From: Verrucomicrobiota bacterium
GTDB lineage: Bacteria > Verrucomicrobiota > Verrucomicrobiia > Limisphaerales > CANJXF01
Direction of reading: 5' to 3'
Assembly: GCA_038214755.1 (NCBI GenBank)
Contig: JBBQRQ010000007.1
Coordinates: 1 to 64,000 of the forward strand
DNA length: 64,000 nt
Below the pieces are notes generated by a model. It was not told the origin of the DNA. It saw only the letters and a program-made list of their open reading frames with translations, and ran no database searches. Of the stretch, positions 4,715-63,200 are shown one piece after another. The position numbers and the translations under genes are program-made. The number at the start of each line of letters is the position of its first letter. The stretch's first letter is position 1.

Positions 4715-4774
4715 GGAAAACTTATAGTCGCTCCGGCCTCTGACAACAACGATAAAGGCCGTTTAAGATGCGGA

Positions 4775-5164
4775 TCAAGACCGCTTCACTGCTATGCACT
4801 CGATTTCATATTTCAAAGTTGGCGGCAAACAACTGGTGATGGTCGTCCGCGCGGGAAACGGCGCTTTGAAATATTCGCGGTAAAGCTGGTTATAGAGCGG
4901 CACTTCTTCCACATCGCGAACGTAATTGCGTGTTTGGATAACGTGCGCCAGATCGCTTCCCGCCGCTTCGAGAACCTCGTTCATGTTCTCAATCGAACGA
5001 CGAAACTCGCCTTCAAACGTATCGGATACAATCTTACCGGTCGCATCAACCGACGCCTGGCCCGAAACAAAAATGAGATCACCGAACTGCACGGCGGGAC
5101 TGAATGGAAGAGGCGACGTCGGAGTGTCCGCAGCTTTTGGATAACTGACTTGTGGATGGTTCAT
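4775..5164 (-). CDS. RidA/YjgF/UK114 family protein
   Basis: PFSPAV..GDLIFVSGQ, FPARTT, EIECIA. Confidence 0.95.
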   Translation of the reverse strand: MNHPQVSYPKAADTPTSPLPFSPAVQFGDLIFVSGQASVDATGKIVSDTFEGEFRRSIENMNEVLEAAGSDLAHVIQTRNYVRDVEEVPLYNQLYREYFKAPFPARTTITSCLPPTLKYEIECIAVKRS

Positions 5165-6657: not shown

Positions 6658-6810
6658 GAATTGTGGGGTCGCGCCACAGACAACCAGCTATGCCTTCTTT
6701 TTAAGTTTATCTTTCAAAAACCCTGCGATCTCGATCAACGCTTCCGAACCCACCTTTTCACCTTCAGGATTTATTTCAAAAATTCTGACGCGAACAGTTT
6801 CGAGTTGATG

Positions 6811-9281: not shown

Positions 9282-9288
9282 GTCGAAA

Positions 9289-10068: not shown

Positions 10069-10072
10069 TGAA

Positions 10073-10876: not shown

Positions 10877-10878
10877 AA

Positions 10879-11841
10879 TTATTTAGCAGCGATATCGGCG
10901 TAAATTTCTTCGAGCTTCACACTGCGTCCGTTTTGTACCCGGCTGCGAATTCCAGCAATAATAACGGCCATGAGTTCAACTGTTTGTTCAAACGGAAGCG
11001 GTGGCTGCCCGGTTCTCAACATGTCGATGAATGAAATCAATTGCTCACGAAACGCTGTATAGGTATCTCGCAACGTCAAGGTCAATTGTCCTTTTGTTCC
11101 ATAAACATGCACGGTACCAAAGCTGCCGTAGGCGTCGTGAATGGCCGCTATTGTCACTTGAGTTCCGCTCTTATGAGTGAGATGAACAATGTCCGAACCT
11201 TCCTGGTGATTTGTCTGCGCGCTGATGAATCCCGGGCCAAGTCGAGGAGAAATCGCTTCCAGCGCGTGAATGCCGTAACGCTCCCAGGTGTTGCAGGTAA
11301 AACTTGTGATCCAGCACAGATCTCCAGTTTCTTCGCAGCACTCTTTCACCAGTTTCATCTCTGGCATGTAACGCATGCCGCTCGTTGAAAGAATTTTCGC
11401 GCCCGCCTTCTGCCATGCGATGAATTGTTTTAAGTCCGGCAGATTTATGGCCAATGGTTTATCTATAAAGACAGGCAGGCTTGCCTCGACAAAAGGGGCA
11501 ACGCGTCCAACATGATCGTTGCCGTCGTCGGTCGCGATAATTACTGCGTCCACTTTGCCTATCACATCCTCAGGCTTGGAAACCACATTTTCAATTTTGC
11601 TTGCGGCTGCAACTTTTGGCGCATCGCTAGGATTATCGGTCCAGATGTGAGTGACTCGCGCGCCTGGGATTCGAACCATTTCCAGAGGTTGCTTGCCCAG
11701 ATATTGCGCAATGACCGGGTAGGCACATGATGCCATTTTATCCGGATTGTAACCATTGATAATGGCCGACCATGAATAAGGATGACCATTGCCTTCGATC
11801 ATTCCGAGCATCGCAAGCCGAATTTCTTGAGTAGAATTCAT
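10879..11841 (-). CDS. Gfo/Idh/MocA family oxidoreductase
   Basis: VDAVIIATDDG..H, FIDKPLA, YGIHA; ATG at 11841 overlaps the upstream stop (ATGA). Confidence 0.85.
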   Translation of the reverse strand: MNSTQEIRLAMLGMIEGNGHPYSWSAIINGYNPDKMASCAYPVIAQYLGKQPLEMVRIPGARVTHIWTDNPSDAPKVAAASKIENVVSKPEDVIGKVDAVIIATDDGNDHVGRVAPFVEASLPVFIDKPLAINLPDLKQFIAWQKAGAKILSTSGMRYMPEMKLVKECCEETGDLCWITSFTCNTWERYGIHALEAISPRLGPGFISAQTNHQEGSDIVHLTHKSGTQVTIAAIHDAYGSFGTVHVYGTKGQLTLTLRDTYTAFREQLISFIDMLRTGQPPLPFEQTVELMAVIIAGIRSRVQNGRSVKLEEIYADIAAK

Positions 11842-13089: not shown

Positions 13090-13610
13090 AGGCGCAGTGA
13101 TTGCGTGGGCCAGTATTCGTTCAATTTTGCATTGGCCTTCGGTCACTTCACCGACTTCGCGACTGGCTTCGGGCGTCATTTTATGATAAGTGACGGTCTT
13201 CAGAAACTTTTCCACCCCAACACCACCTGTATAGCGCGCTACGCGACTCGGGGGGGAGAATGTGATTGGTGTCGATTGATTTGTCGCCGTAGGCAACAGT
13301 TGTTTCTTCGCAGATAAATTACGAACCGTAAATAGTCAAATCTTCGACATAATCTTTATCTTCAACATGTAGTTCCCAGTCCTCCACGCGTAGTCATCGC
13401 TTAGTTCGACGGCTTCATCCATAATCAGCAACACGAACCATCCCGTTGTCGCGCCACCCTCGTGCGTTACGCCTCTAATCACGTGCAGCATCTCAACAGG
13501 CTTGGCCGCAGTTTCAATTTATGGTTTTCAAAAACACCCAGTGCGCACCTCCTCCACCTTCACCGATGATCTGCACGCCGCACAAAATGTCTGTCGGCTT
13601 TAGGTCGCTA
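13090..13610 (-). pseudogene. Histidinol-dehydrogenase-family (HisD/HpsN-like) remnant
   Basis: Broken frames give DEAVELSDDYA, YGS*F.CEETTVAYGDKSIDTNHILP and ARYTGG...KFLKTVTY...AHAITA. The 5' part is lost at the IS3 remnant. Confidence 0.75.
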
Positions 13611-13614
13611 ACAC

Positions 13615-14773
13615 CAGAGCAAATTCAGCGAAGCGCAGATTATGGGGATACGCCGAGAGGCCGGTGGTGACACGCCGGTCAAGGTGGTGTGTCCGGCATG
13701 ACGTGAGCGAAGCGACGTTTTACAAGTGGCGCTCCAAGTAAGGCGGGATGGAGGTCAACGAAGCGCGCAGATTGCGTTCTTGGGGGGAGGAGAACGGCTG
13801 GTGGAAGCGGTTGGTGGCGACCAAGCCGTGCAAATCCAGATCCTCAAGGAGGTGAACTCAAAAAAAAATGGTAAGCCCGTACACCGGGTCATCGAAACGG
13901 GATTGGACACGACGGCAGAAGCCTGTCGCGACGTTAGACTGGCCCGATCGAGTTATTACTGCAACAGCACGATGAGCACTGCGAGAATCGAAATTTCCAA
14001 AAAGCAGATCGTACGTTTGAGTCAGGATCATCCGCGTTACAGGTATGGGAGGGTGACGGCGATGCTGCGCCGAGATGGTTAGGAGATCAACGCCAAGCGG
14101 GTGTAGGGAGTCCAAAGAAGGGGAGGATTGCAAGTGAATCGAAGGCAACAAAAGCTGCGCCGATTGGGCCTCTCGACGGCGCGGCAGCGAGCGATGGAGG
14201 CCAATCAGGTTTGGAGCTGGGACTTTGCCGAGAACCAAAATGAAAACGGGACGCGGTTGCGAATGTTGACGTCGATTGATGAATACACGCGAGAATGCCT
14301 GGGGATGCGGGCTGGTCGATCCTGGCAGGGGACGGCATCACGGTGGTGGAGGCGGCAATGGGGCGTTACGGCTTGCCGACGCATCTGCGCATTGACAACT
14401 GGACGGAGTTCATCGCCTATGCGATCAAGGACTGGGTGCGAGACAAGAACGTGAAGACGATTTACATCACACCGGGTGCGCCGTGGGAGAACGCTTACAT
14501 TGAAAGCTTCCACGACAAGCTTTGGGACGAGTATTTGAACCGCAAAATCTTTGGCAGCCTTTTGGAGGCGCGGGTTGTCATCGAGCAGTGGCTCCTTTAT
14601 AATAACGCGGAGTGGCCGCACATCTCGCCGGGATCTCAGAGGCCGAGCGAGTATGCTGGCCGCGCCATCCGCCGTTCGGAACTCCGGTCGGGCTACGCCC
14701 TTCCTCCGTCCCGAACTGTCTAACAAAGTCTCGAACCCATGGCAGAACCATAGATTGTTCTATTGCGAAATCA
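13615..14773 (+). mobile_element. IS3-family (IS407-like) element, degraded
   Basis: orfA SKFSEAQIMGI...SEATFYKWRSK*GGMEV; orfB YRYGRVT, ANQVWSWDF, IDEYTRECL, DNWTEF, PGAPWENAYIESF; several stops and frameshifts. Confidence 0.9.
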
Positions 14774-16288
14774 TTTAGTGAATGAAGGTATGCCAATTCC
14801 CATCGCAGCAATGTCGGCACCGATCCCCGGAGGAAAGTCATTTGTTTTTACATCATGCGCCAGCCATTTGCGAAAATCGAGTTGGCGCACCTGAGACTTG
14901 GAATCTTGTTTTGAGGCGAGTTGGTACGCCGTAAATTTCTGAAGCGGAAAGAATACGTTCTCAAGTCCGATTTGGCCAATATCATAGATATTTTCATCGG
15001 CCAACCAGTTTCCCCCGGACCTGATCTCAACCTCGTAATTGCTTCCCCCGAGGATGAGGGATTTGGTGAGTTTCAGCGATCCCCCTTTTGCCACCACCGT
15101 TGATAAATGGTTCACAGTGATCCTGCTGGCCTCCAGAGAACACCTGTCGCTTACAAGAATCTTGCTGGAACTTTTTTCCGGCATTTGAGAACCATCAAAC
15201 ACAACGTTCTCCATTTGCAGGAGGCAATGATCCCAGCCCTCATGTAAAGCACCGCGTGCCGGATCGGCCAGCCATTTATCGTTGCCGAATTGAGTCATTA
15301 AACTGAGCGGCGCTACATTACCGTGAACCTGGATGTAACTATTCTTCAAAACATGCGTGCCGCCCCCGTAATAATATAGGTCAACTCCATGAATATTTTT
15401 GGTGACCAGATGGTTGATAACGTCGTTTCCGCAGTTGGCTATCCCCGTGGCACAACCGTCAACTTCAAAGCCGTCCACTCTCAATTCGGAGTCGGCATGA
15501 GAGCTCATTCCATCATCGCAGCATTCGATCGCTTTGATATTCTCATACACAATATCACGAATCTTATAATTCCTTTCTGAAGGCGCAGATCCGCTGGTAA
15601 GGCCAAACCCGTCATTAATCACGTGAGTAGCGGTAATGTTTTTGATGACGATGTGACTCACATTACCCCAGATTTCCGTTCCACTGACTCTGGTCGGCAC
15701 ACGAATGTGATAACTCGCCAAGGTTCTCTTTGGATCAATTTTAAGTAAATAGGCATGCTCATTCTCCTCCTGGTATGTCCACTCGCCGATCTGCAGGTCC
15801 GCAATAGATTTATAAGGATCTAAATGGCCTTTGCCTGAACGGCCCATTCGGTTTAGTTTCCCGTTCATGACCAGCGCGAAGCGCATAAGAAACGCTGGGC
15901 TGGAAGAGATTGGTTTGAAATAGAGGATGGTATTGCGATATAGACCTGGACTTATCTCATGCCAATCGCTTTCCACTAAAGGGTCGCTTCCATCGATAAC
16001 TGCTCCATGACCATCCAGGGTAATAGGCTTGCCGGGTTCCCCAGACTTATTTCGAAATTCAACACACTCTTTAGTATAGGTTAATAGCGCTAGATGGATT
16101 GTATCTCCAGGCTTAGCTGTTTTGATTGCGTGAGCAATTGTTTTAAAAGGACCGTTTGTGGCCTTAATCTCTGAGGAAAGTCCATTCGCTGTATCACCGC
16201 CGGTTTCCGGATTGACGTATAAATCAGCAGCGTATCCTTTTGAGAACCACATGCTCAAAATAAGGAGAGGAATAATATATCGACTCAT
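14771..16288 (-). CDS. Secreted right-handed parallel beta-helix protein (pectin-lyase-like fold)
   Basis: Signal peptide; LYVNP..G.D...G....PFKTIAHAI...PGDTI; NDGFG and DDGMSSH repeats. Confidence 0.8.
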   Translation of the reverse strand: MSRYIIPLLILSMWFSKGYAADLYVNPETGGDTANGLSSEIKATNGPFKTIAHAIKTAKPGDTIHLALLTYTKECVEFRNKSGEPGKPITLDGHGAVIDGSDPLVESDWHEISPGLYRNTILYFKPISSSPAFLMRFALVMNGKLNRMGRSGKGHLDPYKSIADLQIGEWTYQEENEHAYLLKIDPKRTLASYHIRVPTRVSGTEIWGNVSHIVIKNITATHVINDGFGLTSGSAPSERNYKIRDIVYENIKAIECCDDGMSSHADSELRVDGFEVDGCATGIANCGNDVINHLVTKNIHGVDLYYYGGGTHVLKNSYIQVHGNVAPLSLMTQFGNDKWLADPARGALHEGWDHCLLQMENVVFDGSQMPEKSSSKILVSDRCSLEASRITVNHLSTVVAKGGSLKLTKSLILGGSNYEVEIRSGGNWLADENIYDIGQIGLENVFFPLQKFTAYQLASKQDSKSQVRQLDFRKWLAHDVKTNDFPPGIGADIAAMGIGIPSFTK

Positions 16289-16291
16289 GCT

Positions 16292-17761
<1,470 letters not shown>

Positions 17762-17770
17762 CCGAAGATG

Positions 17771-20700
17771 TTATTGTTTCGTGACGGTTTCATCGAGGTT
17801 CAAAATCACCTGTGCGACGGCAGTCCAGGCAGCGAGTTTTAGTTCATTGATCTGCTGTGGGCGCTTGGATTCTCCAGCGCTGATCAACTCGACGGCTGAC
17901 GTCAGGTCTTGCTGATAAGTGTTGAGCATTTCCTCGTAAATATCGCTCAGAATTTTTTGTTCCTTGAGCGTGGGCAGACGTGCCAAAGCAACCTTATAGG
18001 CATAGGCAAGATGCGATGGAAGGCTGTCCCCGCCTTCTCGCATGATGCGCTGGGCAAAAACGCGCGCCGCTTCGACAAATGTATCTTCATTCATTGTCAC
18101 AAAGGCCTGCAGCGGCGTGCAAGTTATGCTGCGTTGTTCCGTGGAAACCGTTCGGTCCGGCGCGTCGAACGTTTTGAACATCGGGTAAGGCATCGACCGT
18201 TTCCAGAGTGTGTAGAGGCTGCGGCGGTAAAGATCAACGCCGTGGCTAACTTCGTATTTCTCTACACCTTTATACAATATTTCTTCCCACAAACCTGCCG
18301 GTTGATAAGGCCGTACACTTGGCCCGCCCAATGTACAATCGTAGAGTCCACTGTAAGCCAGCACACCGTCGCGAATCATTTCTGCGGGGAGCCTGAATCG
18401 CGCGCCACGGGCCAGCAGCCGATTAGCCGGATCGCGCGCCAGTAATTCTTTGCGAGTTTTGGAGGACTGACGATAAGTCGCCGACATCACGATTTTCTTT
18501 TGCAGCGCTTTGATGTTCCACCCGCTGTCGATGAACTCGCGCGCCAGCCAATCAAGCAACTCCGGGTGTGAAGGCAACTCACCTTGACTGCCAAAATCAT
18601 TCCCAGTTTTGACCAAGCCTGTTCCGAAATAAAGTGCCCAATAGCGATTGACCGTCACACGCGCCACGAGCGGATTATTCGGATTGACGAGCCAGTTGGC
18701 GAGAGTGAGCCGATTGGTCTTCGAATCAGCCGGCAGCGGCGCTAAAACCCGCGGGACATTAGCAGTAACTTGTTCGCCTTTGTTTCGATAATCGCCGCGA
18801 ATACGAATTCGCGTTGGCCTCCGTTCGGCCATCTCTTGCATCACTCGTACGGTTGGGATACTTGCCTTCAAGTCTTTTTTGGACTTTTTCAATTCCCTGA
18901 GCCGTTGGTTGAACTGTTGGACTTCCGGCAAATGGTTCTCGCGAAAATATTGCTCTACTTCGGCCATCTGTTCAGGCTTTCGTTCAGTGGCGGATAGCTT
19001 CAATATTTTTTTTATTGCCGTGAATTTTTCATCACCAGATTCCCTATCGGTCGAAAAATAGAATCCGTAAGTACCATCGTAATTGATAATTTTAAGAAGC
19101 AATTTGTTTTCGCCTCGCTTCAACTCTACTTCTACTTCGTCCTGGTTCGGTGCGGCCTCACGTCGAATGTCCTTTGCGATGATTGCCTTTCCATTCAGCC
19201 ATCCTTTCAGGGCGTCGCCACTTCCCATGTAAAGCGCCACCGTCTTGGCCGCTTCGACGGTAATAGTCCTATACAAGTAAGTGGCGGCATTCTCGCCCGA
19301 TAAGGTTTGAACCGCGCTATCTTGCCAAGAAGGCTGCGGTACCCATTTTAACTTGCCGTCCTCATAGGTTTTGGCCAGGTCCATCTCTTGTTCCGGAGGA
19401 AATGCTTTGGCATAGGCCTCAGAGCCGGAGGCGGCAGTGAAAGGACCAATAGAGGACCAGTCACTCAACAACACTGGCGGATTTACTTTTTCATTCGCCA
19501 AGACGCGGTGTGCCCACTCAGCTTGAGCCGCAGGCCATGCCGGATCGGTTGCTGCAAGCAAGGCTTTGCGTTGCGCATCAATCTGCGCCAGCTCAGCATC
19601 CACCTTGGCCATGGCAGCACGCTGTTCAGCATTGGGCACTTCGACAAATGGCGGCGCGGGATCAACGTCTAAACCCTCCTCGGGAATCTGGTTAAAGAAA
19701 TCGTAGAGCTGATAATATTCCTTCTGGCTGAATGGATCGTATTTGTGGTCGTGACATTCTGCGCACCCGATGGTTGATCCAAGCCAAACGGTAGAAGTCG
19801 TATTGACGCGATCCGTGACATGCTTGTTCAGATACTCCTCTGGATCCGCGCCACTCTCGGTGGTGCTCATACCGTTTCGGTTGAAAGCGGTGGCGATTCT
19901 CTGATCCAACGTCGTGCCCGGCAACAGGTCGCCAGCAATTTGCTCGACGGTGAATTGATCGAATGGTTTGTTTTGGTTGAATGCGTTAATAACCCAATCG
20001 CGATATTGCCACATGGATCGTGGCGAATCCCTATGGTAACCGTCGGAATCAGCATAACGCGCCAGATCCAGCCACTGTTGCGCCATCCGTTCGCCGTAAT
20101 GCGGTGATGCCAGCAGACGATCGACGGTTTTTTCGTAAGCCTGCGAACTCTTGTCACGCAGAAATGCGTCCACTTCGGACACCGTGGGCGGCAAACCAGT
20201 CAGGTCAAAAGAGAGCCGCCGAAGCAGCGGGCTTCTGTCCGCTTCCTGCGATGGACTGATCTCTTCTTTCTCCAAGCGAGCCAGTATCAAATAATCGATT
20301 TCGTTGCGCGGCCACTTCTTATTTTTTACCTCAGGCAGAGGCGGTCGCTCTGGTGGAATGTACGCCCAATGCCGCTTCCAAGCCGCGCCTTGCTCGATCC
20401 ACCGGCGCAGCAAGTCAATCTGGGTTTTGGTCAGGCGTTTGCCGGTCTTCTTCGGCGGCATCCGGTCGTCCTCGTCGTCGGACGCAACCAGCTCGAGCAA
20501 TTTGCTTTTCTCCGTATCGCCGCGGACAATGGCGAAGTCCCCGGATTCCAGTTTACTGAAAGTTTCTTCCTCACGGTCCAGACGCAGACCGGCCTTGCGT
20601 TTGTTCTTGTCTGGACCGTGACAAGCGTAACAGTTTTCGGAAAAGATCGGACGGAGATCACGGTTGAAGTCAATCGGCGGTTTGGTATTTGCCTGGACCC

Positions 20701-52434: not shown

Positions 52435-53076
52435 ATGTTATCCGAAAAAGTCTACAAGAAAGTTAAGTCGATGATCTACGATGGACACTTGCAGCCAGGT
52501 GAGCGTCTGGTGGAGCGAGATCTTTCCCGGAAGCTAGGCACAAGCCGCATTCCCTTGCGTGAGTCTCTGGTTCGTCTTGAATCCGAAGGGTTAGTACGCA
52601 GCATCCCGAACAGCGCCTCTTACGTTGAGGATTTTTCCCCGTCAGACATTTTGGAAATGTATTCGATGCGACTCGTGCTGGAGCCCTTGGCGGCGCGACT
52701 GGCCACGCTGCAGCATGAGGATTCCTTGTTGGACAAACTGCGCAGGCTTTGCGAACTGATGACCACCTGCACAAGAAACTGTGATTGGACTGGACTTGAT
52801 CGCGCCGACTACCAGTTTCATCGCTTGATCGTCGGCGCATCAAGCCATAAACTTTTGATTCGTACCTATGACAACTGCCATATCCAAGTCACCGGCAGCC
52901 GCCCTTCATACGCTCACTTGAAGCTCCTTACCCCTGATACTACCGCTAAAGAACACGATGTCATCATGCAGGCTATTGGAAAATGGGATGCCCACGCTGC
53001 GGAGGAAGCTACCCGCGATCACGTAAGACTTGCTCTCGGTCAACTGGAGGAATACTTAGGAGTACGGCTGAAATAA
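52435..53076 (+). CDS. GntR family transcriptional regulator (FCD domain)
   Basis: LQPGERLVERDL...SRIPLRESL..LESEGLV; D.QFH, EH. Confidence 0.95.
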   Translation: MLSEKVYKKVKSMIYDGHLQPGERLVERDLSRKLGTSRIPLRESLVRLESEGLVRSIPNSASYVEDFSPSDILEMYSMRLVLEPLAARLATLQHEDSLLDKLRRLCELMTTCTRNCDWTGLDRADYQFHRLIVGASSHKLLIRTYDNCHIQVTGSRPSYAHLKLLTPDTTAKEHDVIMQAIGKWDAHAAEEATRDHVRLALGQLEEYLGVRLK

Positions 53077-53572
53077 AGGATCGGGGCATTAATGCCAATG
53101 CTACGGCACCAAACATATCCATCCGGGCATCCTCGCTCTTCCACGGAACACGTTTTGGTGGCAACCGGAATCCGAGTTCATCCGAAAATTTGTCGGCAAT
53201 GATTTGAGCGATCTGATGTTTGGTGCCGTGTCCATCAGGAACAAAGGTACGACTCACCTGCTCGCGCGGAAACAACAGGACAGTGACATTGCGTTTTTCC
53301 GCCCGGAAGATGATTCGCTTGGTGAGCATCCGAATCCTCGTTGAACGCCGGAACGGTTTAATGGAAGTATCTTCAAGAACCAGTACGTCAGGCTCATAAT
53401 GCTCGATCATCTCTCTTACCCTCGCAATTGATCCATTATTCTTGTCTCCATCAATTGCCTTCAGACCCCAATCGGCCAAGATGTTCTGTCCTTCAAGGAG
53501 CGCAAAACCGAGACCTCGAGTTGAGAGAGCTATTCCAAGGATACGAGGATATTTCGGGAGAGTCTTTGTCAT
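53009..53572 (-). CDS. RuvC-like/RNase H-fold protein, probably catalytically degenerate
   Basis: RILGIALSTRGLGFA, PDVLVLED, TKHQIA, MFGAVALA; 3' end overlaps gntR. Confidence 0.7.
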   Translation of the reverse strand: MTKTLPKYPRILGIALSTRGLGFALLEGQNILADWGLKAIDGDKNNGSIARVREMIEHYEPDVLVLEDTSIKPFRRSTRIRMLTKRIIFRAEKRNVTVLLFPREQVSRTFVPDGHGTKHQIAQIIADKFSDELGFRLPPKRVPWKSEDARMDMFGAVALALMPRSFISAVLLSIPPVDREQVLRDRG

Positions 53573-53583
53573 GATGTTCTGGG

Positions 53584-53916
53584 TTAAGAAGCCGCAAGGT
53601 CAGCGAATGCTTCGCGTTTACGAACGCTCTGGGAACTAGGTTTGCCGAAATCTTTTCTTTCCGATAAAATCTTGGCCCGCTCGGTTACTTCTCCTTCGAC
53701 TTTTTGATAGAGACCAGCAAAGAGTTCACTGGTTGATCTTTTGTAAACGACCTCGAACGCCAAGGCGGTTCTCAAACTTGGCTCACGAGCAAACCGTTCG
53801 TAACGGGAAATCTTGGCTCCGCTTCTAGTGCCCAACAGAAAAGCCACTTCATCTTGGGATAAAGCAAGGCGCTTTCGGTTTGCTTTGAGGTAATTGGGTA
53901 GTTGTGGCGAAGACAT
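53584..53916 (-). CDS. XRE-family HTH transcriptional regulator
   Basis: NYLKANRKRLALSQDEVAFLLG....ISRYER..REPSL. Confidence 0.9.
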   Translation of the reverse strand: MSSPQLPNYLKANRKRLALSQDEVAFLLGTRSGAKISRYERFAREPSLRTALAFEVVYKRSTSELFAGLYQKVEGEVTERAKILSERKDFGKPSSQSVRKREAFADLAAS

Positions 53917-54160
53917 GGAATTGATCAACTCTGAATGAGTTACAAGTTACAGTATCCGATCACTCGGATTACCTCACGGGGGCAACCTTTGCCGGAATCG
54001 GCAAGATTTTACAAAAACACCGAGCGTTTTTGCTCGGCGCTATCGGAAATATAAAAGCACATTTCTGGAGATTTGTACAGTATTCTTTGTGATTCAACTT
54101 GCCTAAACCTACAAGCTTCACCGTCTGCCTCGCCGTATAGAGATGGGTCAGACTTAAGTG

Positions 54161-54331
54161 ATGAAAATTGAGCAGACCCAGATCGATGAGTTGAATCGCA
54201 TTTGTATGGAGTCCTTTCAAAGAAATTTCTCCGAAACCGAATTACAGGAGATTGCCCAAAGGATCATTCGCTTTCTCAAGAATACCGAAGGCTTCCCCGC
54301 TCCACTTTCGCACGACGTTGACCCGGATTAA
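54161..54331 (+). CDS. Small helical protein upstream of the recombinase (below the ORF-track cutoff)
   Basis: ATG..TAA, 56 aa MKIEQTQIDELNRICMESFQRNFSETELQEIAQRIIRFLKNTEGFPAPLSHDVDPD. Confidence 0.6.
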   Translation: MKIEQTQIDELNRICMESFQRNFSETELQEIAQRIIRFLKNTEGFPAPLSHDVDPD

Positions 54332-54347
54332 CGTCGTACGTTAAGCT
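54318..54347 (+). promoter_or_regulatory. Putative sigma70 promoter of the recombinase with operator-like palindrome
   Basis: TTGACC-18nt-TAAGCT; TTAACGT-cgt-ACGTTAA at 54328-54344. Confidence 0.5.
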
Positions 54348-54362
54348 AGAACAATCCCTTCC

Positions 54363-56201
54363 ATGACCCCCTATGTAATTTACAGTCGAAAATCGCTGGA
54401 GGATGAAGACAGTCAAGTGCAATCAATTCCGTCCCAAGAGAAGGAAATGAAATCGATTGCGGCTAAATTCAATTTGACCCTCGTCGAACCTCTGCTGAGT
54501 GAAGCCAAATCCGCCAAAGCACCTGGCCGGCTTGTTTTCAACGAGATGATGGAGCGGGTTGATAAAGGTAAAATCAAAGGAATACTTTGCTGGAAACTTG
54601 ATCGGCTTGCCCGCAATCCCGTTGACGGCGGACGGATCATTTGGGCAATCAAGCAACATGGTTTAGTCATCAAGACCCCTCACCAAACTTTCTCCCAGGC
54701 GGAGGATAACTTGATTCTCATGTATATCGAGTTTGGGATGGCTCAAAAATATGTTGATGATCTCAGTAGAAATACCACAAGAGGTTTGAAGGCCAAAGCT
54801 GAAAAGGGCTGGTACCCCGGTGTAGCTCCAATGGGATATTTAAACTCCAAGATAGAAGAACGTGGCAGTAAAACCATCCTGAGTGACCCGGAACGATTTG
54901 CGGCTGTCCGGCGAATGTGGGATCACATGCTCACGGGCAATTTCAGCCCCGCACGCATCCAGAAGATGGCAAATGCGGAATGGGGATTTCGCACTCGCCA
55001 AACCAAACGAACGGGAGGTAAAGCCATTTCAAGAAGCACGGTCTACAAAATCTTTTCTGATCCCTTCTATTATGGTCGGTTTGAATATCCAAAAAGAAGC
55101 GGGCTATGGTATGAAGGCCAGCATGAACGGATGATTACGGAGGCAGAGTTCAACTGCGTCCAAAAGATACTTCACCGCGAGACTAATCCGCGGCCTCATA
55201 CGGAATTTGTTTTCCATTTCCGAGGATTGATTAGATGTGGAGAATGTAATTCAAGTATTACAGCCCATTGTAAGGAGCAAGTGCGTTGCACCGGGTGTCA
55301 TTACAAATCGTCGGTCAAGAACCGCGCTTCCTGTTTTAAGTGTGGTCTATCACTCAATGACATGAAAGCTCCGAAGCTCAGGCAATACGCGTATTACCAT
55401 TGCACGCGCAAGCTCAATAGAGCTTGTCGCCAACAATGTATTTCTGCCGATGCCCTCGACAAGCAACTAACGGAAAAGTTGAAGGCTTACCGTCTGCCAC
55501 CCGAGTTCCGGGATTGGGGCTTGAAATATATTGAAAAACTAAAGGATCAAGATCGTGCGGAGAGAAAGCAAATCTTTGAAGAACGCAGAAAGACGTACGA
55601 CCAATGTCTATCTCGCTTGGAGAATCTGGTTAAGCTCAAGACAGCCCCCGAGAATGCTGACGGCAGTCTTCTTTCCGATGAGGAGTATCAAAAACAGCGC
55701 TCCGATTTACTCAATCAGAAAGGCAGTCTAGCAATGGATACTTCCACCTTTGAGATCGAATTGGAGAGCAAGACGCGCGTGGCAAAGGAAGCCTTAAACA
55801 CGATGGGCCAAATAGCCGAACCGACCTTCGATGGGGATGTTTTGAGAAAAAGAGAGATTCTGGCTGCTCTGGGATTGAACCACGTCTTAAAGGAAAAGGA
55901 GCTAGAGATTAGGCCGGAATTTCCCTTCTCTGACTTTCCATATGATGGAAAGCAGGATCGATCTAGTATTGACCCGATTGAACCGGAAAATATGCAGGAG
56001 GGACCAGGCTTAAATGGGGATACTATCTCTCCTTGTCCGAGACTGGAGCGGGACGTGGACGAAGATCGAACCAACGCATTGAAATCGTGCCTTCAATCAA
56101 TCTGGAAAAAGATTGATCCATCATCGCCGATTTTCAATCGCTTTCCTTTTAAACTAGGGGCACCAATTGTCCCCGTTCGTCGCGGGAGACGGCTAATTTA
56201 G
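54363..56201 (+). CDS. Large serine recombinase (resolvase + recombinase + zinc ribbon + coiled coil)
   Basis: YSRKS (catalytic Ser), WKLDRLARN, G..P.GY, FYYG, H..MIT...F, LIRCGEC, YYHC. Confidence 0.96.
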   Translation: MTPYVIYSRKSLEDEDSQVQSIPSQEKEMKSIAAKFNLTLVEPLLSEAKSAKAPGRLVFNEMMERVDKGKIKGILCWKLDRLARNPVDGGRIIWAIKQHGLVIKTPHQTFSQAEDNLILMYIEFGMAQKYVDDLSRNTTRGLKAKAEKGWYPGVAPMGYLNSKIEERGSKTILSDPERFAAVRRMWDHMLTGNFSPARIQKMANAEWGFRTRQTKRTGGKAISRSTVYKIFSDPFYYGRFEYPKRSGLWYEGQHERMITEAEFNCVQKILHRETNPRPHTEFVFHFRGLIRCGECNSSITAHCKEQVRCTGCHYKSSVKNRASCFKCGLSLNDMKAPKLRQYAYYHCTRKLNRACRQQCISADALDKQLTEKLKAYRLPPEFRDWGLKYIEKLKDQDRAERKQIFEERRKTYDQCLSRLENLVKLKTAPENADGSLLSDEEYQKQRSDLLNQKGSLAMDTSTFEIELESKTRVAKEALNTMGQIAEPTFDGDVLRKREILAALGLNHVLKEKELEIRPEFPFSDFPYDGKQDRSSIDPIEPENMQEGPGLNGDTISPCPRLERDVDEDRTNALKSCLQSIWKKIDPSSPIFNRFPFKLGAPIVPVRRGRRLI

Positions 56202-56230
56202 TCATGAGACTCTTTACTACCCGATGACCT
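56044..56230 (+). repeat. att-like repeat copy 1 (inside and after the recombinase 3' end)
   Basis: TGGAGCGGGACGTGGACGAAGATCGAACC followed by about 160 bp homologous to copy 2. Confidence 0.85.
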
Positions 56231-56436
56231 GAACGGGAGGAGGAGAGACCTAGACTACCTGTAATATCTCGTATTGATGGAGAAATTCCTTCCCTTTCTG
56301 CCGTCTTTATAAAGTAGTTTCTTCTCAGTTATTGCTTTGAATTCCTGAACTGCCTCCGTGATGATCATTATAGTACGGTATCAAAACTGGAGTAGGAGTA
56401 CAAGATTGCCGGAGGCGGCAAGAAATCTACACTGCT

Positions 56437-56465
56437 TTGCATTTTGGGTTAAAGTTTTATAGAAT
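56437..56465 (+). promoter_or_regulatory. Putative sigma70 promoter of hicBA (leaderless)
   Basis: TTGCAT-17nt-TAGAAT, 6 nt before the ATG at 56472. Confidence 0.65.
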
Positions 56466-56471
56466 GAAACT

Positions 56472-56720
56472 ATGAACCAATACACCTACTCAGTCGAAAT
56501 AGAAGCAGCGGAAGAAGGAGGATATGTCGCCTCTGTCCCCGCATTGCCGGGCTGTCATACGCAAGGCGAATCATTGGATGAAACAGTTGCCAATATCAAA
56601 GAAGCAATTGAAGGATTCTTACTGTCACTCGTAAAACATGGCGAGCCGATTCCTGTTGAGCGTGAGTCGAGACATCCTCTGACTATAAGCATAGGGGTAC
56701 GATCTCCGCTTGCTGCATGA
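56472..56720 (+). CDS. hicB: HicB family antitoxin (short, no DNA-binding domain)
   Basis: EEGGYVASVPALPGCHTQGESLDE...NIKEAI...GEPIP. Confidence 0.93.
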   Translation: MNQYTYSVEIEAAEEGGYVASVPALPGCHTQGESLDETVANIKEAIEGFLLSLVKHGEPIPVERESRHPLTISIGVRSPLAA

Positions 56721-56944
56721 CGCGGTTACCTATTCTCAATTCTAAGAAAATAATTAAGGCTTTAAAACAAGCTGGTTTTGAAGAGGACATTCAACATGGC
56801 AGTCATTTGTATTTTTGGCATCCGATAAAGAAACTAAGGACGTGTGTGCCAATTCATGCCGGCAAAGATATTGGTCGTAGCTTACTGAGAAAGATTTTAA
56901 CCCAGGCTCGACTTTCAGAGGATGAATTCCGAAAATTACTCTAG
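56717..56944 (+). CDS. hicA: HicA family toxin
   Basis: IIKALKQAGF....GSH....H......VPIH.GKDI; ATGA overlap with hicB. Confidence 0.93.
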   Translation: MTRLPILNSKKIIKALKQAGFEEDIQHGSHLYFWHPIKKLRTCVPIHAGKDIGRSLLRKILTQARLSEDEFRKLL

Positions 56945-57151
56945 ACACGAAAGGTGGTATTTTATTGCCCCGAAGTCCAAACCCAGCAAAGTGTTCCGTT
57001 CTCCTCACTCGATTAGCTGTCGAACAACATCTCTTCCTTGACCGTTTCAAAGAGAGACTGGAGTTTAAGAGCAGCTGGAGTGTTTACCTTGTTTACCATA
57101 CAAAAGTGGGTATCTCTCCTTTTTGAGGTAAACAGTCGGCCTTAGACCAAA

Positions 57152-57179
57152 GAAAAACCCCTAAGCTGAGGGGTTTTTC
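57152..57179. terminator. Bidirectional intrinsic terminator
   Basis: GAAAAACCCCT-aagctg-AGGGGTTTTTC perfect 11-bp stem with A/T tracts on both sides. Confidence 0.8.
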
Positions 57180-57209
57180 ATGGGGGCTATTCTTGCCAAT
57201 TTGGCAACT

Positions 57210-58310
57210 TGGAGCGGGACATGGACGAAGATCGAACCGTATCATTGAAGCTTGCTTTAGAAGGAATTTGGAAAAAGATCGTTCCTTCATTGCCGATTCT
57301 TGATCGCTACCCTTTCGTGAATGAAAAGCCAGTAATTCATGCTCTCCATCGTGATGAGAAGGGTCGTTTTGTTTAAGAAACAGATCCAATCAAATAATCC
57401 TAGAAGCCATTTCATAAGTTAAAAATTGTAAGTGCTTTGTACTTGTACTTTTACGAAGGATTTGTGAAAAGCTGGGGATGCAAAAAGCATTCTTATCAGA
57501 TGAGCAATGGAAAAAAATTGAGCCGCATTTGCCGTGCGACAAAAGTCGCGGACGGCCTTGGGCGGACAACCGCCGTGTCTTCGAAGGGCTATGGTGGATG
57601 CTTAAGACCGGCGCACGCTGGTGCGATCTACCCAAAGAATATCCCAGCCCCAGCACCTGCTGGAGACGCTTGCGCCGCTGGGAAAAGCAAGGCGTCTGGC
57701 TCAAAATCTGGCGGCAGTTTTTATCGGAACTGGACCAGCGCGGCAAACTCGATTGGAGTGAAAGTTTTCTGGATGGCAGTTTTGCTCCGGCAAAAAAAGG
57801 GGCTTTGGCGTCGGCAAAACCAAGCGCGGCAAAGGCACGAAGTGGATGGTGGTGGTCGACGGCCAAGGTGTTCCTCTGGGAGTCCAACTGGTCAGCGCCA
57901 GCCCGGCGGAAGTGACGCTGGCGGAGAGCACGCTGCAAAAAATTTCGGTGCCGCAGCGGCGCGGACGCCCGCGCCAGCGGCCTTTGCGCGTGGTGGCCGA
58001 CCGCGCTTACGACAGCGATGCCTTGCGCTGGCGTTTGCTGCAACGCGGCATGGTTTTGATCTGTCCGCATCGCAAGAACCGCCGGAAACCCTCGCGCAAC
58101 GACGGACGAGAACTGCGCCGCTACCGCAAGCGTTGGAAAGTCGAACGCACCTTCGCCTGGCTGGGCAACTTCCGACGGTTGCTGGTTCGTCACGATCATC
58201 ATCTGAATATTTATGAAGCGTTTTTCCACCTCGCCTGCCTCATCATCACCCTCAGGCACTTATGAAATGGCTTCTAGTCATTCTCAGATGCTATTACTAC
58301 TCGGTTGACT
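57210..58310 (+). repeat. att-like repeat copy 2 (interrupted by the IS5-family element)
   Basis: TGGAGCGGGACATGGACGAAGATCGAACC (28/29 identical to copy 1); homology resumes after the IS (tagtcat...ttactac.cg). Confidence 0.85.
57403..58274 (+). mobile_element. IS5-family (IS427-like) element, apparently intact
   Basis: Perfect terminal IRs GAAGCCATTTCATAAG/CTTATGAAATGGCTTC in a CTAG target; orfA 57478 and orfB ending 58265 joined by the A7G4 slippery site at 57792; DRAYD, RWKVERTFAWL. Confidence 0.95.
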
Positions 58311-58351
58311 CTAACTATATCACTCTCCCGCCGAATCTAAAAGAGACGGCT

Positions 58352-58600
58352 TTAGGAACTACCCCACTTGATCCAATCGCTCTGATGAATATTCGACTGT
58401 TGGATCATTGTCTTGAGTGTTGAGATGGGATAACTCCCATGAGTAATATTCACTTCGACCCGTCTATCTTTCTCCGCACCTTCTCCGTATTTTATCCAGG
58501 CCTCATGCGAGCCTTTTAATGGTTTTAAAAATCTGAATCCGTTCTTCTTCAAAAAGTGCGTAACATCTCGATATGTCCAGTTGCGTAATTTTCTTGTCAT
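58352..58600 (-). CDS. hicA: HicA-like toxin (no adjacent hicB seen)
   Basis: V..FLKKNGF.....KGSH...TLKTMI.QS. Confidence 0.8.
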   Translation of the reverse strand: MTRKLRNWTYRDVTHFLKKNGFRFLKPLKGSHEAWIKYGEGAEKDRRVEVNITHGSYPISTLKTMIQQSNIHQSDWIKWGSS

Positions 58601-59017
58601 GCCCCCAGAATAATTCTGAGGACCGTTGAAATACAGACGATGGGATTTGACGACAGCGGCAAGTCTTTTTTAGACGTCAAATGATCTTCCCTCCGAGGCC
58701 GTAGGGAAACCATATTCATTCTACTCGCAGCCGAAAGAGCGAAATGTTAGTCTGACGCACTACTGAAAGAGCATATTCCTTACTGTTGACCTTTTTCCAA
58801 TTTCTGAGGACGCCACTGCCCTACACCAGAATTTACCTTGTTGCCCTGCCGTCAATTTTAGCTCGCTAACCGATCCTGCCAACGATTACACAGGGAAGAG
58901 ACTGGATGATAAAGGTAAAAGATAAAAGAACCGTATTCTTCCAGGCACCAGACAGGCGTTTTATCTCTTTCGAGCGCCTGGATGTCAATTCACTTTCGCT
59001 GATTATATGCGAGTTGA

Positions 59018-59263
59018 TTACCCTTTCGACTCGCGAGGGTCTGCACTTCTAGGATAGGTACGCTCTTCTTGGAATCGAGCATTTTCCTTTTGGATTTTTA
59101 CTGAACCGCCTTCCTGGCCAAGAACTTTCTTAAGCACCCCGCCTTTGGTCGCGTCCTCTTTGGTCTCGAAGGTTTTAACGACCCGGTTGGTTTTATCATT
59201 TCCAAGGTCCCAACGGTCCTTTTTCTCGTTATATTCCAATGTGAATTTTCGTAAATTTGCCAT
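59018..59263 (-). CDS. DUF2188-like small protein
   Basis: W......R...F.TKEDA......GSVKIQ..N.RFQEERTYP...DP..SKG. Confidence 0.8.
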   Translation of the reverse strand: MANLRKFTLEYNEKKDRWDLGNDKTNRVVKTFETKEDATKGGVLKKVLGQEGGSVKIQKENARFQEERTYPRSADPRESKG

Positions 59264-59399
59264 ATTTTTTTAAGTTAGTTCTTCGGTGGTCGACCGAGCA
59301 CCGATATTGTTACAATGATATCAGTTATGGCAGGAATGTAAAGCTTGGTAGAATAGCGTTCTTGCCTTCCGTTCGATAACCCAGCATCTTGGCATGGTT

Positions 59400-59891
59400 G
59401 AGAACTGTCCTTTACAAGAGTTGTTCCATCAAGCCGGAAATCGCCCTAATCAATGGGTGAATCTCTCCCAAGAGGCATTTGAATTCGCCTCTACCGCGCG
59501 AGCTCGGTTTGCTAAAGGTGATCCAAAGACCAAAAAACGATTCTTTCCACTATCGCATCGAACTTAACCTAATCGACAAAAGCTTAGCATTGAAGCCAAG
59601 AAACCATTCTTTATCCTAGAAAATTCCGTGCGAGGTGAGGGATGTGAAAATCAAGAAATCGAACCTGAAATAATCCATGTGGAACGAGGACAGAAAGAGG
59701 CAAGGGCCTCTTCTGGTCCCGGATGGTGCGCCATCCGGGACGAAGATCGAACATTTCCATTAAAAAGCGGAGAGATAGTTAAGTCAATTTACCACTTCTT
59801 TCGAAGCGAATGTTCGTCGCCTAAATTTAAGTTGTCCGAATGGGCCGATTTAGGTCATGAAGAAAGCATGACAGAACAAGAAAAAATCTAA
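59400..59891 (+). pseudogene. C-terminal remnant of a second large serine recombinase carrying att-like copy 3
   Basis: LSQEAFEFASTARARFAKGD, (I)LSTIASNL, KLSIEAKKPF, IEPE-18aa-WCAIRDEDRT; frameshifts near 59540-59580. Confidence 0.75.
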
Positions 59892-59938
59892 AGTGGGTCG
59901 AACTTGCCGGAAGTGATAAGAATCATCACCTGCTCTGT

Positions 59939-60160
59939 TTACAGCAATTTTTGAAAGTCTTCCTCAGATACTTCTATTTGTTTCAAAATGAGTTTGAGCA
60001 ATGAACGTTTTGGATCCTTACCATGCTTTGGCACGCACGTTGTAACCCCTTTATAGGATGTTTCAAAATAAGGTGACTACCGCGTTGCCTATCCACCACA
60101 AAGCCGACTCGTTCGAGAGCTTGAATAATTTTACGTGCCGATAGAGTCGGCTGGCTGCCA
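59939..60160 (-). pseudogene. hicA: Frameshifted hicA paralog
   Basis: LSARKIIQALERVGF...QRGSHLILKHPIK / CVPKHGKD / RSLLKLILKQ...EEDFQKLL* split across frames. Confidence 0.8.
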
Positions 60161-60252
60161 ATTTCAAATATAAAAAATGACCGGTTGCGGACGGGATTTA
60201 GATAAAAGCTTGTTGCCAAGCGATCTTTTGGTTAAAAACTGCGGTCGACCCA

Positions 60253-63200
60253 ATGGCAGTGATTTGCCCAATCCTTTTCTGCATTTTTGGTGCGGCGCTC
60301 GGGGTGGCTCACGCGGAAGCCGCGTTGCGCCCGCCAGTGCATCCGCGCCGCAACGTGGAGGATTTTCCGGTGGTGCCGGCCAAGTACGTTCGCTTCACAA
60401 TTCTCAAGGCCACCAGTAGCGAGCCTTGCTTGGATGAACTAGAGATTTATCCCGAGGAGGACGCAACGCGCAACATTGCGCTGGCCAAGGGCGGCGCGCG
60501 GGCGACGGCTTCAGGCTCTTTGCCGGGTTTCCAGATTCACCAACTCGAATTCGTCAATGACGGAAGATATGGAAACGGCCATAGCTGGATCGCCGATAAA
60601 GCCAGTGCCTGGGTCCAAATCGAACTTCCGGAGGTGGCGCTTATCAACCGCGTGGTTTGGGGTCGTGACCGCGAGAACAATTTCGTCGACCGCTTGGCGG
60701 TGGAGTATGGCATTGAGGTATCTACCAACGGCAGCACTTGGTGCCCCGTCGCTTCCTCCGCTGACCGGTCGCCGTTGGTCATAGGCGGAACGTTCGCCGG
60801 AGTCCAACCCATGACACGGCAAATCGTGACTCGGTTCGCGCCTGTCAATAGCAGCTTCTCATTCGAATCGCAGAACAACTCCCCCGATTACAGAATCGAC
60901 CGCTGGCAGACCGAGGACGGCCTGCCGGGGAATACGGTGACTTCGATACTTCAGACGCGCGACGGGTATCTCTGGATTGGTACGTTTGGCGGGTTGGCGC
61001 GGTTTGACGGGGTGCGGTTCAAACGATTTGGCGAGGCGGAGGGACTGAAGAACAATCGCGTTCTCTGCCTGTGCGAAGATCGGCAGGGCAACCTCTGGGT
61101 GGGCAGCGAGGGCGGCGGGCTTTTTCAACTTCGTGACGGTGTGTTTACTGAACTGACGACCCGCGACGGTCTGCGGCACGATGTCGTCACGGCGTTGGCG
61201 GAGGGCCGGAGCGGCCGCCTTTGGATTGGAACCTACGCTGGCCTACAGTGCTGGCAGGAAGGACACTTTGTTATGGACCCAGCGGAACCGTTTCAGTCTT
61301 CCTTCCCGGTGACGCGGTTGCTCGTGGACCGCGCTGGCACGGTCTGGATGGTCGTTAACGGTCAGTTGCGCACGGTGGTGGCCGGGCACGTGGTCACTCC
61401 CAAACTGGGGGGTGAACCGAGCGGTCAACTGGCGATCTCCGCGCTGCACGAAGGCAAATCAGGGCAGCTCTGGCTCGGCGGCAACAGTGGATATGTGGCG
61501 TCGTCTAGCAACGGCGTCCTGAGGGTCTTACCACTGCCGCAGGAAATGCCGCCTGACAATATTTGGGAAGTGCTGGAGGCAGGGACTGGCGACATATGGA
61601 TGGGCACCGCCTCGAGTGGCTTGCGGCGCTGGCGCAACGACCGCGTTTTGGCGCTCACCACCCAAGAGGGGATGGCTGAGAATTCCGTACGTTGCCTCTT
61701 TGAAGATCGGGAAGGAAACCTTTGGGTGGGCACCAATGGCGGGGGACTACAGCGGCTCAAGCCGAAAACTCTTCGACTCGTGACCACTCGTGATGGGCTG
61801 GCCCACAACGTCGTGATGTCACTCGCCGAAGAGGGTAGTGGGGAGTTGTGGATTGGTTCTAATTGTGGGGGGCTGAGCGCGCGACGCAAAGGAGTATTCA
61901 CTCCCGCATACTTGAACTACCTGCTCGACAATGAATGCATTTGGTCGGTGCTAAGCGCTCGGGACGGTGCGCTGTGGGTGGGCACTTGGAACAACGGACT
62001 GTTTCGCAAAACTGGGGAAAAGCTGGAGCAGTTTAAATTGGCCAACTCCTACAGCGATGAACCAGTGCTGGCGTTATGCGAAGACCGCAACGAAGGAATG
62101 TGGGTGGGAACCTACCAGGACGGGCTGAAATTTTTTCGGGACGGCAAGTTTACCTCGTATCGCATAACAAATGGATTGTCGGCAAATTTCGTTACGGCGT
62201 TGGTGCAGGACGTGAAGAGTAGGCTTTGGATTGGGACGGCCGGGGGCGGACTAAATTGTTTCGCGGACGGCGTGTTCAAAGTCCTGAAGCGCCGAGACGG
62301 ATTGGGCAGCGATTTCATTCGCGCTCTCCACATTGACGCGAATGGAGTGCTCTGGATTGGCACAGGCGGAGGCGGAGTGAGCCGGCTAAAGGACGGGGAG
62401 TTAAAGACGATCAGCACCCGCCAAGGGCTGCTTGATGATGTTATCTCGCAAATTCTTGAGGACGACAATGGTCATTTTTGGTTCGGTTCGAATCGTGGCA
62501 TTTTCTACGTGTCCAAGGCGGAATTAGAGCGGGTAGCCGAGGGACGTGTAGGCTCACTTAATCCCATCACCTTTGGAAAAGCGGAGGGAATGGAGAATCT
62601 CGAATGCACCGGCGGCTTCTGCCCGGCGGGCCTGAAGACACGAGACGGCAGGTTATGGTTTTCGACAGTCAAGGGACTGGTGACCATTGACCCGAAAAAC
62701 ATTCGCAGCAACGATTTGCCTCCGCCGGTTGTCATCGAGCAGGTCATTGTTGACGGGGTTCCCGCAGAAGTTGATGTAAAGAGGCTCACTTCTCAGATCC
62801 GAAACTCGAAATTGGAGATTCGAAATCGTCGGGGCATGTATGCATCGAATAATACGACTTTGAGAATTCACCCCCGGGCAAAACGCGTCGAGTTGCATTA
62901 TACCGCGCTGAGTTTCACTTCACCGGAGAAGGTGCGGTTTCGCTACCGACTTGACGGTCTTGATTCGGACTGGGTAGAAGCCGACGGACGACGTATCGCG
63001 CAGTATCCATTTCTGCCGCCGGGACCGTACCGGTTCCGCGTTACCGCCTGCAACGAGGACGGCGTCTGGAGCCAGAGCGAGGCAGTGCTGGCGCTAACCT
63101 GCCTGCCGGCTCTCTGGCAGACTTGGTGGGTTCGGCTGCTGGGGGCCGCGCTAGTGTTGGGCGGAGCTGGTTGGACTGTGAAAGTGGGGGCAACGCACCG

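Follow-up and report, generated by a model that had tools for sequence, protein, structure and literature searches.

Core repeats at the 3′ end of a large serine recombinase gene in a Verrucomicrobiota bacterium: candidate attachment-site halves in a decayed island with a hicBA module

Why should the 3′ end of a recombinase gene be repeated, in direct orientation, behind the gene itself and between small cargo genes? This question is raised by a locus in a 64-kb window, i.e. the whole stretch of DNA analysed here (contig JBBQRQ010000007.1, positions 1 to 64,000, of the Verrucomicrobiota assembly GCA_038214755.1), where a gene for a large serine recombinase (LSR) ends in a short core sequence that recurs twice downstream and encloses, among others, a hicBA toxin–antitoxin (TA) pair. 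An original prediction, made from the letters of the window, took the locus for an integron-like cassette array driven by the LSR and offered decayed tandem integrations of related islands as the alternative. In the present study, the locus was compared with the 5,106,438-base genome and with related loci and proteins (labelled L, G and P). Each of the three cores probably represents the right half of the attachment (att) site of an LSR family that has its attP inside the 3′ end of the recombinase gene. The window is read here as a decayed, tRNA-less serine-integrase accretion with one integrase-less TA module, and not as an integron.

Three cores within recombinase coding sequence

The 15-nt core GGACGAAGATCGAAC was found at positions 56057, 57223 and 59738, which are the sole three exact copies in the genome and all lie in one island. 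Allowing one mismatch added one match on another contig, and a reversed-pattern control gave none; the core observation is real and far beyond chance. The first two copies (56044-56072 and 57210-57238) are identical at 28 of 29 positions and are spaced by 1166 bp. The left part of the third copy (59724-59752) differs, with TGGTGCGCC... instead of TGGAGCGGG..., and this copy takes part in a perfect 11-bp inverted repeat, GTCCCGGATGG/CCATCCGGGAC, at 59716-59741. An imperfect GTCC..GGAC dyad surrounds the presumed centre of the att site. Additionally, ATTGAACC at 55977 and ATCGAACC at 59658 each precede the ATCGAAC of their core by exactly 88 bp. Copy 2 has a different, non-coding left arm on the forward strand, composed of a terminator-like hairpin (57147-57184) and the palindrome TTGCCAATTTGGCAA (57193-57207). 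All features given in the original prediction, including the direct recurrence of the core, were found at their stated positions.

The original prediction had missed the in-frame LSR coding nature of the cores, as well as an insertion sequence (IS) of the IS4/5 family at 57400-58277. All three cores are C-terminal LSR coding sequence, in frame, and encode DEDRT. The 88-bp spacing follows from this, because both upstream motifs are codons of the family-wide IEPE, located 29 codons upstream in homologous LSR coding sequence. The IEPE codons (55977-55984 and 59658-59665) read AT(T/C)GAACC, so that the T-loop-like motif is present twice in direct orientation; IEPE is conserved throughout the family, and distant members fused to a tRNA still have it as (F/L)EP.

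The gene at 54363..56201 (forward strand) encodes an intact LSR of 612 aa. An N-terminal catalytic domain (Resolvase, PF00239, E 1.3e-18, residues 5-149), in which R9 and S11 are invariant in 40 aligned family members, is followed by a Recombinase domain (PF07508, E 3.3e-9) and by a zinc ribbon (Zn_ribbon_recom, PF13408) that scored 21.7 bits, below the cut-off of 25.3; the cysteines C292, C295, C309, C312, C324 and C327 are conserved, five of them invariantly and C312 nearly so. Among 8000 scored candidates, 3516 homologues were obtained at E≤1e-10. The C-terminus of the best 120 consists of IEPEN, about 25 residues, D[DE][DV]RT and a tail of 45-60 residues; a small number of tail classes can be recognised, all of which align to a single skeleton. 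In the viral collection searched, only one of eight matches was a true relative, so that the family is not phage-borne there.

In the window, the LSR head extends to about 56044 and is continued by core copy 1, interpreted as the start of a tRNA-3′-end-like right arm of the att site, and by tail 1 (56073..56201, forward strand; class A, LK.ALE.IWKK.DP), which forms the present LSR C-terminus. Core copy 2 and tail 2 (57209..57376, forward strand) represent a displaced class-A 3′ end cognate to the first LSR, 53% identical to LSR residues 558-604 (E 1.2e-9), with an open frame free of stops. Core copy 3 lies in a 5′-truncated, frameshifted remnant of a second LSR gene (59394..59891, forward strand) together with its native class-C tail 3. 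By tblastx, this remnant matches the LSRs of L037, L041, L066 and L077 (tail match E 1.3e-20), and it belongs to a different clade from the first LSR. A single classical element stretching from tail 2 to the head of the second LSR was considered and rejected; the core of tail 2 is of the first LSR's type, and the arm and tail of the second LSR are of another type.

Exchange at the core in related loci

In related loci, tRNA genes occupy the position at which the window LSR has its core and tail. In 19 of 80 reference-genome loci, the open reading frame (ORF) of the LSR enters a tRNA gene (for Gln, Asn, Trp, Ile or Ser) in antisense orientation from its 3′ end, and it likewise meets a tRNA 3′ end in 9 of 80 metagenome loci, where L187 repeats L086 and L169 and L170 are near-identical. 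Among relatives of the window genome, a tmRNA, tRNA-Arg or tRNA-Leu gene was located at the expected ORF end in 3 of 10 loci. The LSR heads of P0104, which has a tail, and L122, which is fused to tRNA-His, are 99.8% identical. A complete integrated element is present in L040, where AT-rich host sequence is followed by the core with a class-B tail, 7 kb of element, the LSR head and tRNA-Gln. This GC-rich element (4739-11751) has a Verrucomicrobia-type backbone and sits in an AT-rich contig labelled Paceibacterota, a setting that stems either from transfer between phyla or from faulty binning.

Apart from a 5-nt insert, the right arm of L044 is identical to the 3′ end of tRNA-Gln (16/16 plus TCGAACC). 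The reading frame through TCGAAC differs (DSNQ vs DDVRT) but the sequence itself is retained, and therefore constraint at the DNA level is indicated. Moreover, a non-coding arm is joined to tRNA-Gln in L074, and the homologous arm is joined to a tail in G055. In element-borne arms the distal motif is placed 4-5 bp further out than in the target arm, an offset that matches the attP/attB half-site model of serine integrases. Taken from these comparative junctions, the LSR would act by attP x attB recombination. The crossover would be located at the left core edge, the counterpart of the CCA end in the tRNA, as suggested by the breakpoint between L036 and L047 (..ACA|GGAGCC..), the junction between host and element in L040, the divergence point of P0104 and L122 and the centre of the GTCC..GGAC dyad. 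By analogy with the first three, the crossover in the window is expected at ..GAGACT|GGAGCGGGAC.. (..GAGACT|GGAGCG..), near 56045; since it would fall at the left edge, the whole core would move with the tail.

These junctions also bear on another explanation of the repeats, namely that coding 3′ ends were duplicated by non-site-specific events and have no att function. The in-frame position of all cores and the conserved protein motif that they encode are what it predicts, but it does not provide for tRNA genes joined at the identical ORF position, for a TCGAAC conserved across reading frames, for nearly identical heads continued by either a tail or a tRNA, or for homology that breaks abruptly at the core. 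We regard it as very improbable.

Exchange in the relatives is site-specific, at the core. For 246 LSRs with a length of 500 aa or more, the right arm was assigned to a class by regular expressions (87 were unclassifiable and excluded). The right-arm class differed in 8 of 47 pairs with heads at least 90% identical and in 181 of 361 pairs with heads 80-90% identical, and nucleotide homology in such pairs ends at the core, 1695-1708 nt from the start of the gene. A tail-profile search of 61 related genomes returned 13 tails in 4 genomes, all at LSR loci, and no tail in LSR-less genomes; the 8 of these tails that are displaced are all free of stops. Displaced tails on the same strand were found downstream of the LSR in 9 of 80 genome loci, with a distance of 0.5-1.6 kb past the stop in seven loci (L034, L036, L037, L041, L066, L077 and L108). 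In the cases read, a short palindrome (L036, L037, L041 and G055) or, instead, a terminator-like hairpin (L034 and L066) lies before the displaced tail.

In one pair of relatives, an integrase-less unit has been gained or lost. The backbones of L036 and L047 are 90-93% identical, and L036 carries an extra 732 bp without an integrase exactly at the core. This insert comprises a different core and tail, a small ORF (reverse strand), an XRE-type regulator gene (forward strand) and a palindrome; past it, L036 is again collinear with the L047 tail at 91% identity. Variation of core-delimited units behind homologous LSRs, put forward in the original prediction as its own check, is thereby found. Furthermore, full elements alternate with small units in G055, and a 1.4-kb integrase-less unit lies between two att repeats in the tRNA-Asn array of L069.

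Just past the tails, variable cargo on the minus strand was observed (L036 12890-17420; L047 12123-18659; G055, a reverse-complement composite, 5999-9165 and 13418-19571). It looks defence-like, with OLD/AAA and UvrD-like pairs, a patatin and nucleotidyltransferase pair, and a repeat array accompanied by cas genes, as named from reading the translations. Contigs of relatives often end in or just past the core-tail region (L038, L058, L059, L062, L094, L114, L115, L124, L127, L161 and L190); this might fit assembly breaks at a population-variable site.

The recurrence of such units might indicate a true integron-like platform, in which the LSR gene end is a fixed capture site and small dedicated cassettes are repeatedly captured and excised, each composed of cargo between a replacement tail and a terminator, with a palindrome as its own recombination element. 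The order of LSR, tail, unit of 0.7-1.7 kb, palindrome and second tail is shared by the window with L034, L036, L037, L041, L066, L077 and L108, and L036/L047 supplies an occupied and an empty state. A deletion remnant of a tandem full element would be expected to carry the small ORF and the regulator gene in the orientation opposite to that seen in the units of L036 and L041. The 8 displaced tails are all open, and the cargo of the window unit is a TA pair, a type of cargo also carried by large integron arrays. On the other side, the palindromes share no sequence between loci and are single in each locus, the units are mosaic and no unit occurs in two unrelated contexts, and neither a circle nor an empty site was seen in the material, which is contigs only. 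In addition, the bona fide host arm of L040 shows that left arms can be of arbitrary sequence, and copy 3 stems from a different LSR gene. Taken together, an integron-like platform seems quite unlikely. Of the original prediction, the integron-like array is not sustained: there is no tyrosine integrase and no shared attC-type element, the unit has a promoter-like site and a terminator of its own, and each unit brings a replacement recombinase C-terminal end. The stacking of units at a site in the LSR gene fared better, with L036/L047 and the displaced tails in 9 of 80 loci in its favour, but copy 3 is not a cognate cassette boundary because it is the native 3′ end of the second, 5′-truncated LSR gene of another clade.

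Module composition of the island

The cores are part of a low-GC island of 7.2 kb, from about 53078 to about 60240, with a GC content of 0.42-0.48 compared to 0.51-0.63 in the flanks; the exception within the island is the IS (0.61-0.64). A GntR gene and a hybrid sensor kinase gene are the neighbours on the two sides, surrounded by ordinary metabolic genes. A comparison of the flanks with same-genus genomes gave weak matches of 65-80% over short pieces. An independent assembly of the sole run containing the stretch yielded identical joins across cores 1-2 and core 3. The contigs of that run, which is probably the source of the window, reproduce the window with the only joint inside the IS, and contigs lose rare variants.

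The first gene of the conserved backbone (53081..53572, reverse strand) encodes a RuvC/YqgF-like (RNase H-fold) protein and recurs 5′ of the LSR in 25 related loci, where the homology stops at about residue 164. Its name follows weak matches only (phrog_159, E 0.0087; PDB 1vhx, E 0.86), and no Pfam family was matched. The ORF has lost its native end, and 23 extra codons take it to 53009 (53009-53080), so that it overlaps the convergent GntR gene at its 3′ end. Homology ends at the identical residue in about 20 related loci and is followed there by differing extensions. The backbone further contains an XRE-type helix-turn-helix (HTH) regulator gene (53584..53928, reverse strand; HTH_31 1.6e-5, HTH_3 8.3e-5), kept in related loci, and directly 5′ of the LSR a gene for a 57-aa protein (54158..54331, forward strand), the position of which is kept in L034, L041, L040 and G055 and which has no family match in Pfam or PHROGs.

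The 1166-bp unit between cores 1 and 2 had been described as having its own promoter, hicBA, a terminator and no recombinase. The hicBA pair, the terminator hairpin and the lack of a recombinase hold, and the promoter is weak. On the forward strand, hicB (56472-56720; HicB_lk_antitox, PF15919, 1.8e-11) and hicA (56717-56944; HicA_toxin, PF07927, 4.6e-18) are adjacent and overlap by 4 nt, so that a HicAB-type TA function is predicted from the sequence. The promoter-like site before hicB (56436-56465) is a 9/12 match; 4 such sites were counted, and shuffles gave 2.1 +/- 1.6. Palindromes with the pattern TTGCC N5-6 GGCAA occur between the HTH and small genes (53989-54004), just 5′ of the hicB promoter-like site (56406-56421) and directly before core 2 (57193-57207), with a degenerate copy at 59904-59919; they may be operators of the XRE regulator of the island. 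A palindrome as HTH operator was dropped as a general rule, with the palindromes of L036, L037 and L041 being unique in their own loci. The idea that the palindrome arm of the window is a displaced tRNA end with the tRNA terminator was also rejected, as the genome's own tRNA-Gly has no such palindrome downstream.

The IS (57400..58277, forward strand) starts 24 bp past tail 2, carries DUF4096 and DDE_Tnp_1 in two ORFs and is bounded by perfect 20-bp inverted repeats (57400-57419 and 58258-58277). Its contig depth is roughly doubled in one bin (42.9 vs about 20), which suggests several copies. The gene content of the second interval is confirmed by Pfam and tblastx: a HicA-like ORF (58352-58600, reverse strand; HicA_toxin E 4e-5, below the Pfam cut-off) and a DUF2188 ORF (59018-59263, reverse strand; 1.6e-7) precede the LSR remnant, and a hicA fragment covering profile positions 1-31 of 58 lies past copy 3 (59983..60219, reverse strand). 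For the TA-like cargo at 58352..59263, a match to phrog_353 ('toxin', 3e-7) was also obtained.

From these parts, the following course is proposed. The right half of the att site would comprise the tRNA 3′-end mimic and about 45-60 codons of C-terminal tail, and recombination at the left edge of the core would swap everything to the right of it, so that the LSR head would be joined to a tail in the free, attP-type state or to a tRNA gene in the integrated state. The island would then be an assembly of accreted modules on a backbone of the RuvC-like, HTH and small-protein genes and the LSR head. The integrase-less hicBA module, ending in the terminator and the palindrome, would have brought tail 1, and tail 2 would be the former cognate tail, pushed downstream and followed by the HicA-like and DUF2188 cargo and, later, by the IS. 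Past this cargo, a non-site-specific junction would connect to a second LSR element, of which the decayed 3′ end and the native tail 3 are left, and then to the hicA debris. The hicBA module would have entered, and could leave, through the LSR acting in trans, in the manner of a cis-mobilizable element, and hicBA would stabilise it against loss.

The same layout could result from plain decay, if two or three complete LSR islands in tandem were eroded by deletions and IS and if hicBA were leftover cargo that never was a separate module. The truncated, frameshifted LSR around copy 3, the hicA debris, the IS and the alternating full elements in G055 are compatible with this, and tandem serine-integrase islands have been published for Dehalococcoides (PMC3146451). 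Decay alone would leave unaccounted for that unit 1 has no LSR-head debris, that homology between copies 1 and 2 begins exactly at the core edge and that the identical precise junction appears in independent loci and in the L036/L047 indel. Plain decay is considered unlikely; its relative in the original prediction, decayed neighbouring islands, fits copy 3 as a truncated LSR of another clade.

A bolder form of the accretion proposal regards the spare tails as a working store and not as scars. Each docking module would bring a replacement recombinase C-terminus, so that module gain and loss would rewrite the tail. The tail, present in the free state and absent when the head is tRNA-fused, would act as a built-in direction switch, hicBA would kill cells that lose the module, and the island would be a capture platform without a target tRNA. 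This possibility is put forward tentatively, and we think it doubtful.

Several points weigh against reading the cores as att-site halves within an accretion. ARAGORN detected no tRNA or tmRNA gene in the 64-kb window, no Rfam tRNA match at E≤10 was present in 53000-60400, and blastn-short with all 52 tRNA/tmRNA genes gave nothing convincing as a tRNA remnant in the island. With no tRNA at the array, the LSR is in the attP-type state within ordinary chromosomal DNA, a state for which the reading does not account. The left boundary, at about 53078, has no core, tail or att-like sequence, and only 7-mers are common. Canonical LSRs are known to recombine only attP with attB, and insertion into a head|tail site would thus need relaxed rules or a lost tRNA. 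Moreover, the likeness of the cores to tRNA-Gly is not significant in a gapped shuffle test, in which its score was reached in 202 of 500 shuffles for copy 1 and in 25 of 500 for copy 2; the score of copy 3 against tRNA-Arg was reached in 92 of 500. The related loci all come from metagenome-assembled genomes or metagenome assemblies, in which misjoins at repeats are possible, and L036/L047 is the only clean occupied/empty pair that was found. Finally, in the two copies of G042 the left part of the unit is conserved, the right part is unrelated and the second tails are of different classes; therefore no simple whole-cassette swap is apparent.

For the absence of the tRNA, it is possible that a terminal tRNA was lost, that tails served as secondary targets or that a pre-assembled composite was imported. 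Cores 1 and 2 are most like the genome's own tRNA-Gly(TCC) and tRNA-Gly(CCC), with TGGAGCGGG, ATGG and ATCGAACC in common and a core arm that is 4 nt longer. The tRNA-Gly(TCC) locus (G000 contig C119:7796-7869) looks unoccupied, with no adjacent element, and this tRNA is the best candidate for the target of the window LSR. About 420 nt 3′ of it lies a 116-aa ORF (C119 8289-8639) that is HicB-like by sequence reading alone.

Known systems and meaning for the family

The closest published model, tandem accretion with integrase-less islands, is provided by the ssrA islands of Dehalococcoides, as described by McMurdie et al. (2011, PMC3146451). These islands encode DsiB, a serine recombinase of about 540 aa with an ORF that always overlaps the att site at its 3′ end, are arranged in tandem and are bounded by 20-bp repeats of ssrA (PMC3146451). 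An integration module is missing from fifteen islands, for which cis-mobilisation through accretion was proposed, and the authors suggest that the integrase may be complete only on the circle or beside an island that supplies the 3′ gene fragment (PMC3146451). The window resembles these islands in the overlap of the integrase ORF with the att site, as indicated by the core inside the ORF and the junctions of the relatives, and in tandem modules, with the core present three times in direct orientation and no recombinase in the 1166-bp module, the core likeness to tRNA-Gly itself not being significant. It differs in that the array has no adjoining tRNA or tmRNA gene, present in the relatives, whereas Dehalococcoides has its tmRNA target. 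The window repeat mimics a tRNA end but exceeds it by about 4 nt, and it includes the conserved tail of 45-60 codons. No second, small serine recombinase (DsiA) is among the 15 ORFs scanned with Pfam, and the likeness to DsiB is one by description.

Cis-mobilizable elements, known from accretion and mobilisation with tyrosine integrases, are att-flanked modules without an integrase that lie beside an integrase element in direct orientation. The hicBA module likewise adjoins an integrase-bearing element in direct orientation; unlike in those systems, the recombinase is of the serine type and each window module also rewrites its C-terminus. With integrons the window has in common a recombination site that adjoins or lies in the recombinase gene, small units in one orientation, of which the newest is presumably the nearest, and TA cargo. 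In contrast to integrons, the sole recombinase is a serine and not an IntI-type enzyme, and there is neither a shared attC-type element nor a common promoter, the unit having instead a promoter-like site and a terminator hairpin. Mx8 IntP (PMC4383910) and SSV-type integrases (PMC7253208) are described as extending across attP, with integration changing or splitting the coding end. Integration also alters the coding end of the integrase in the window family; unlike it, Mx8 IntP and the SSV-type enzymes are tyrosine recombinases, for which no stacked spare tails are described. Canonical LSRs such as A118/LI, Bxb1 and phiC31 have attP beside the gene and target protein-coding genes. The window family shares with them the domain order, short imperfect dyads as att sites and the offset of 4-5 bp in the element arm, and differs from them in having attP inside the gene. 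Among the titles and abstract openings covered by a literature search, no description of tRNA-targeting LSRs with swappable tails was found, and the available portion of a large LSR survey does not contain the term 'tRNA genes' (PMC10083194).

The basic design is already published for the Dehalococcoides ssrA islands, and the gain here is one of scope and mechanism, not of kind. The stacking of modules inside the LSR gene site is supported by the relatives. Serine integrases are main tools for the insertion of large DNA, and the control of their direction normally needs a separate factor. In the LSR family considered here, integration removes a conserved tail from the enzyme, which might provide a self-encoded directionality. 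Since the element arm is a copy of the tRNA end lengthened by 4-5 bp, the sequence of the gene might by itself suffice to predict attB. With the window, a case is added of integrase-less modules (here with a TA pair) located at an att site that has no tRNA. If it is true that such modules are mobilised in trans, small defence or TA units could spread by this route in little-studied phyla such as Verrucomicrobiota and Patescibacteria.

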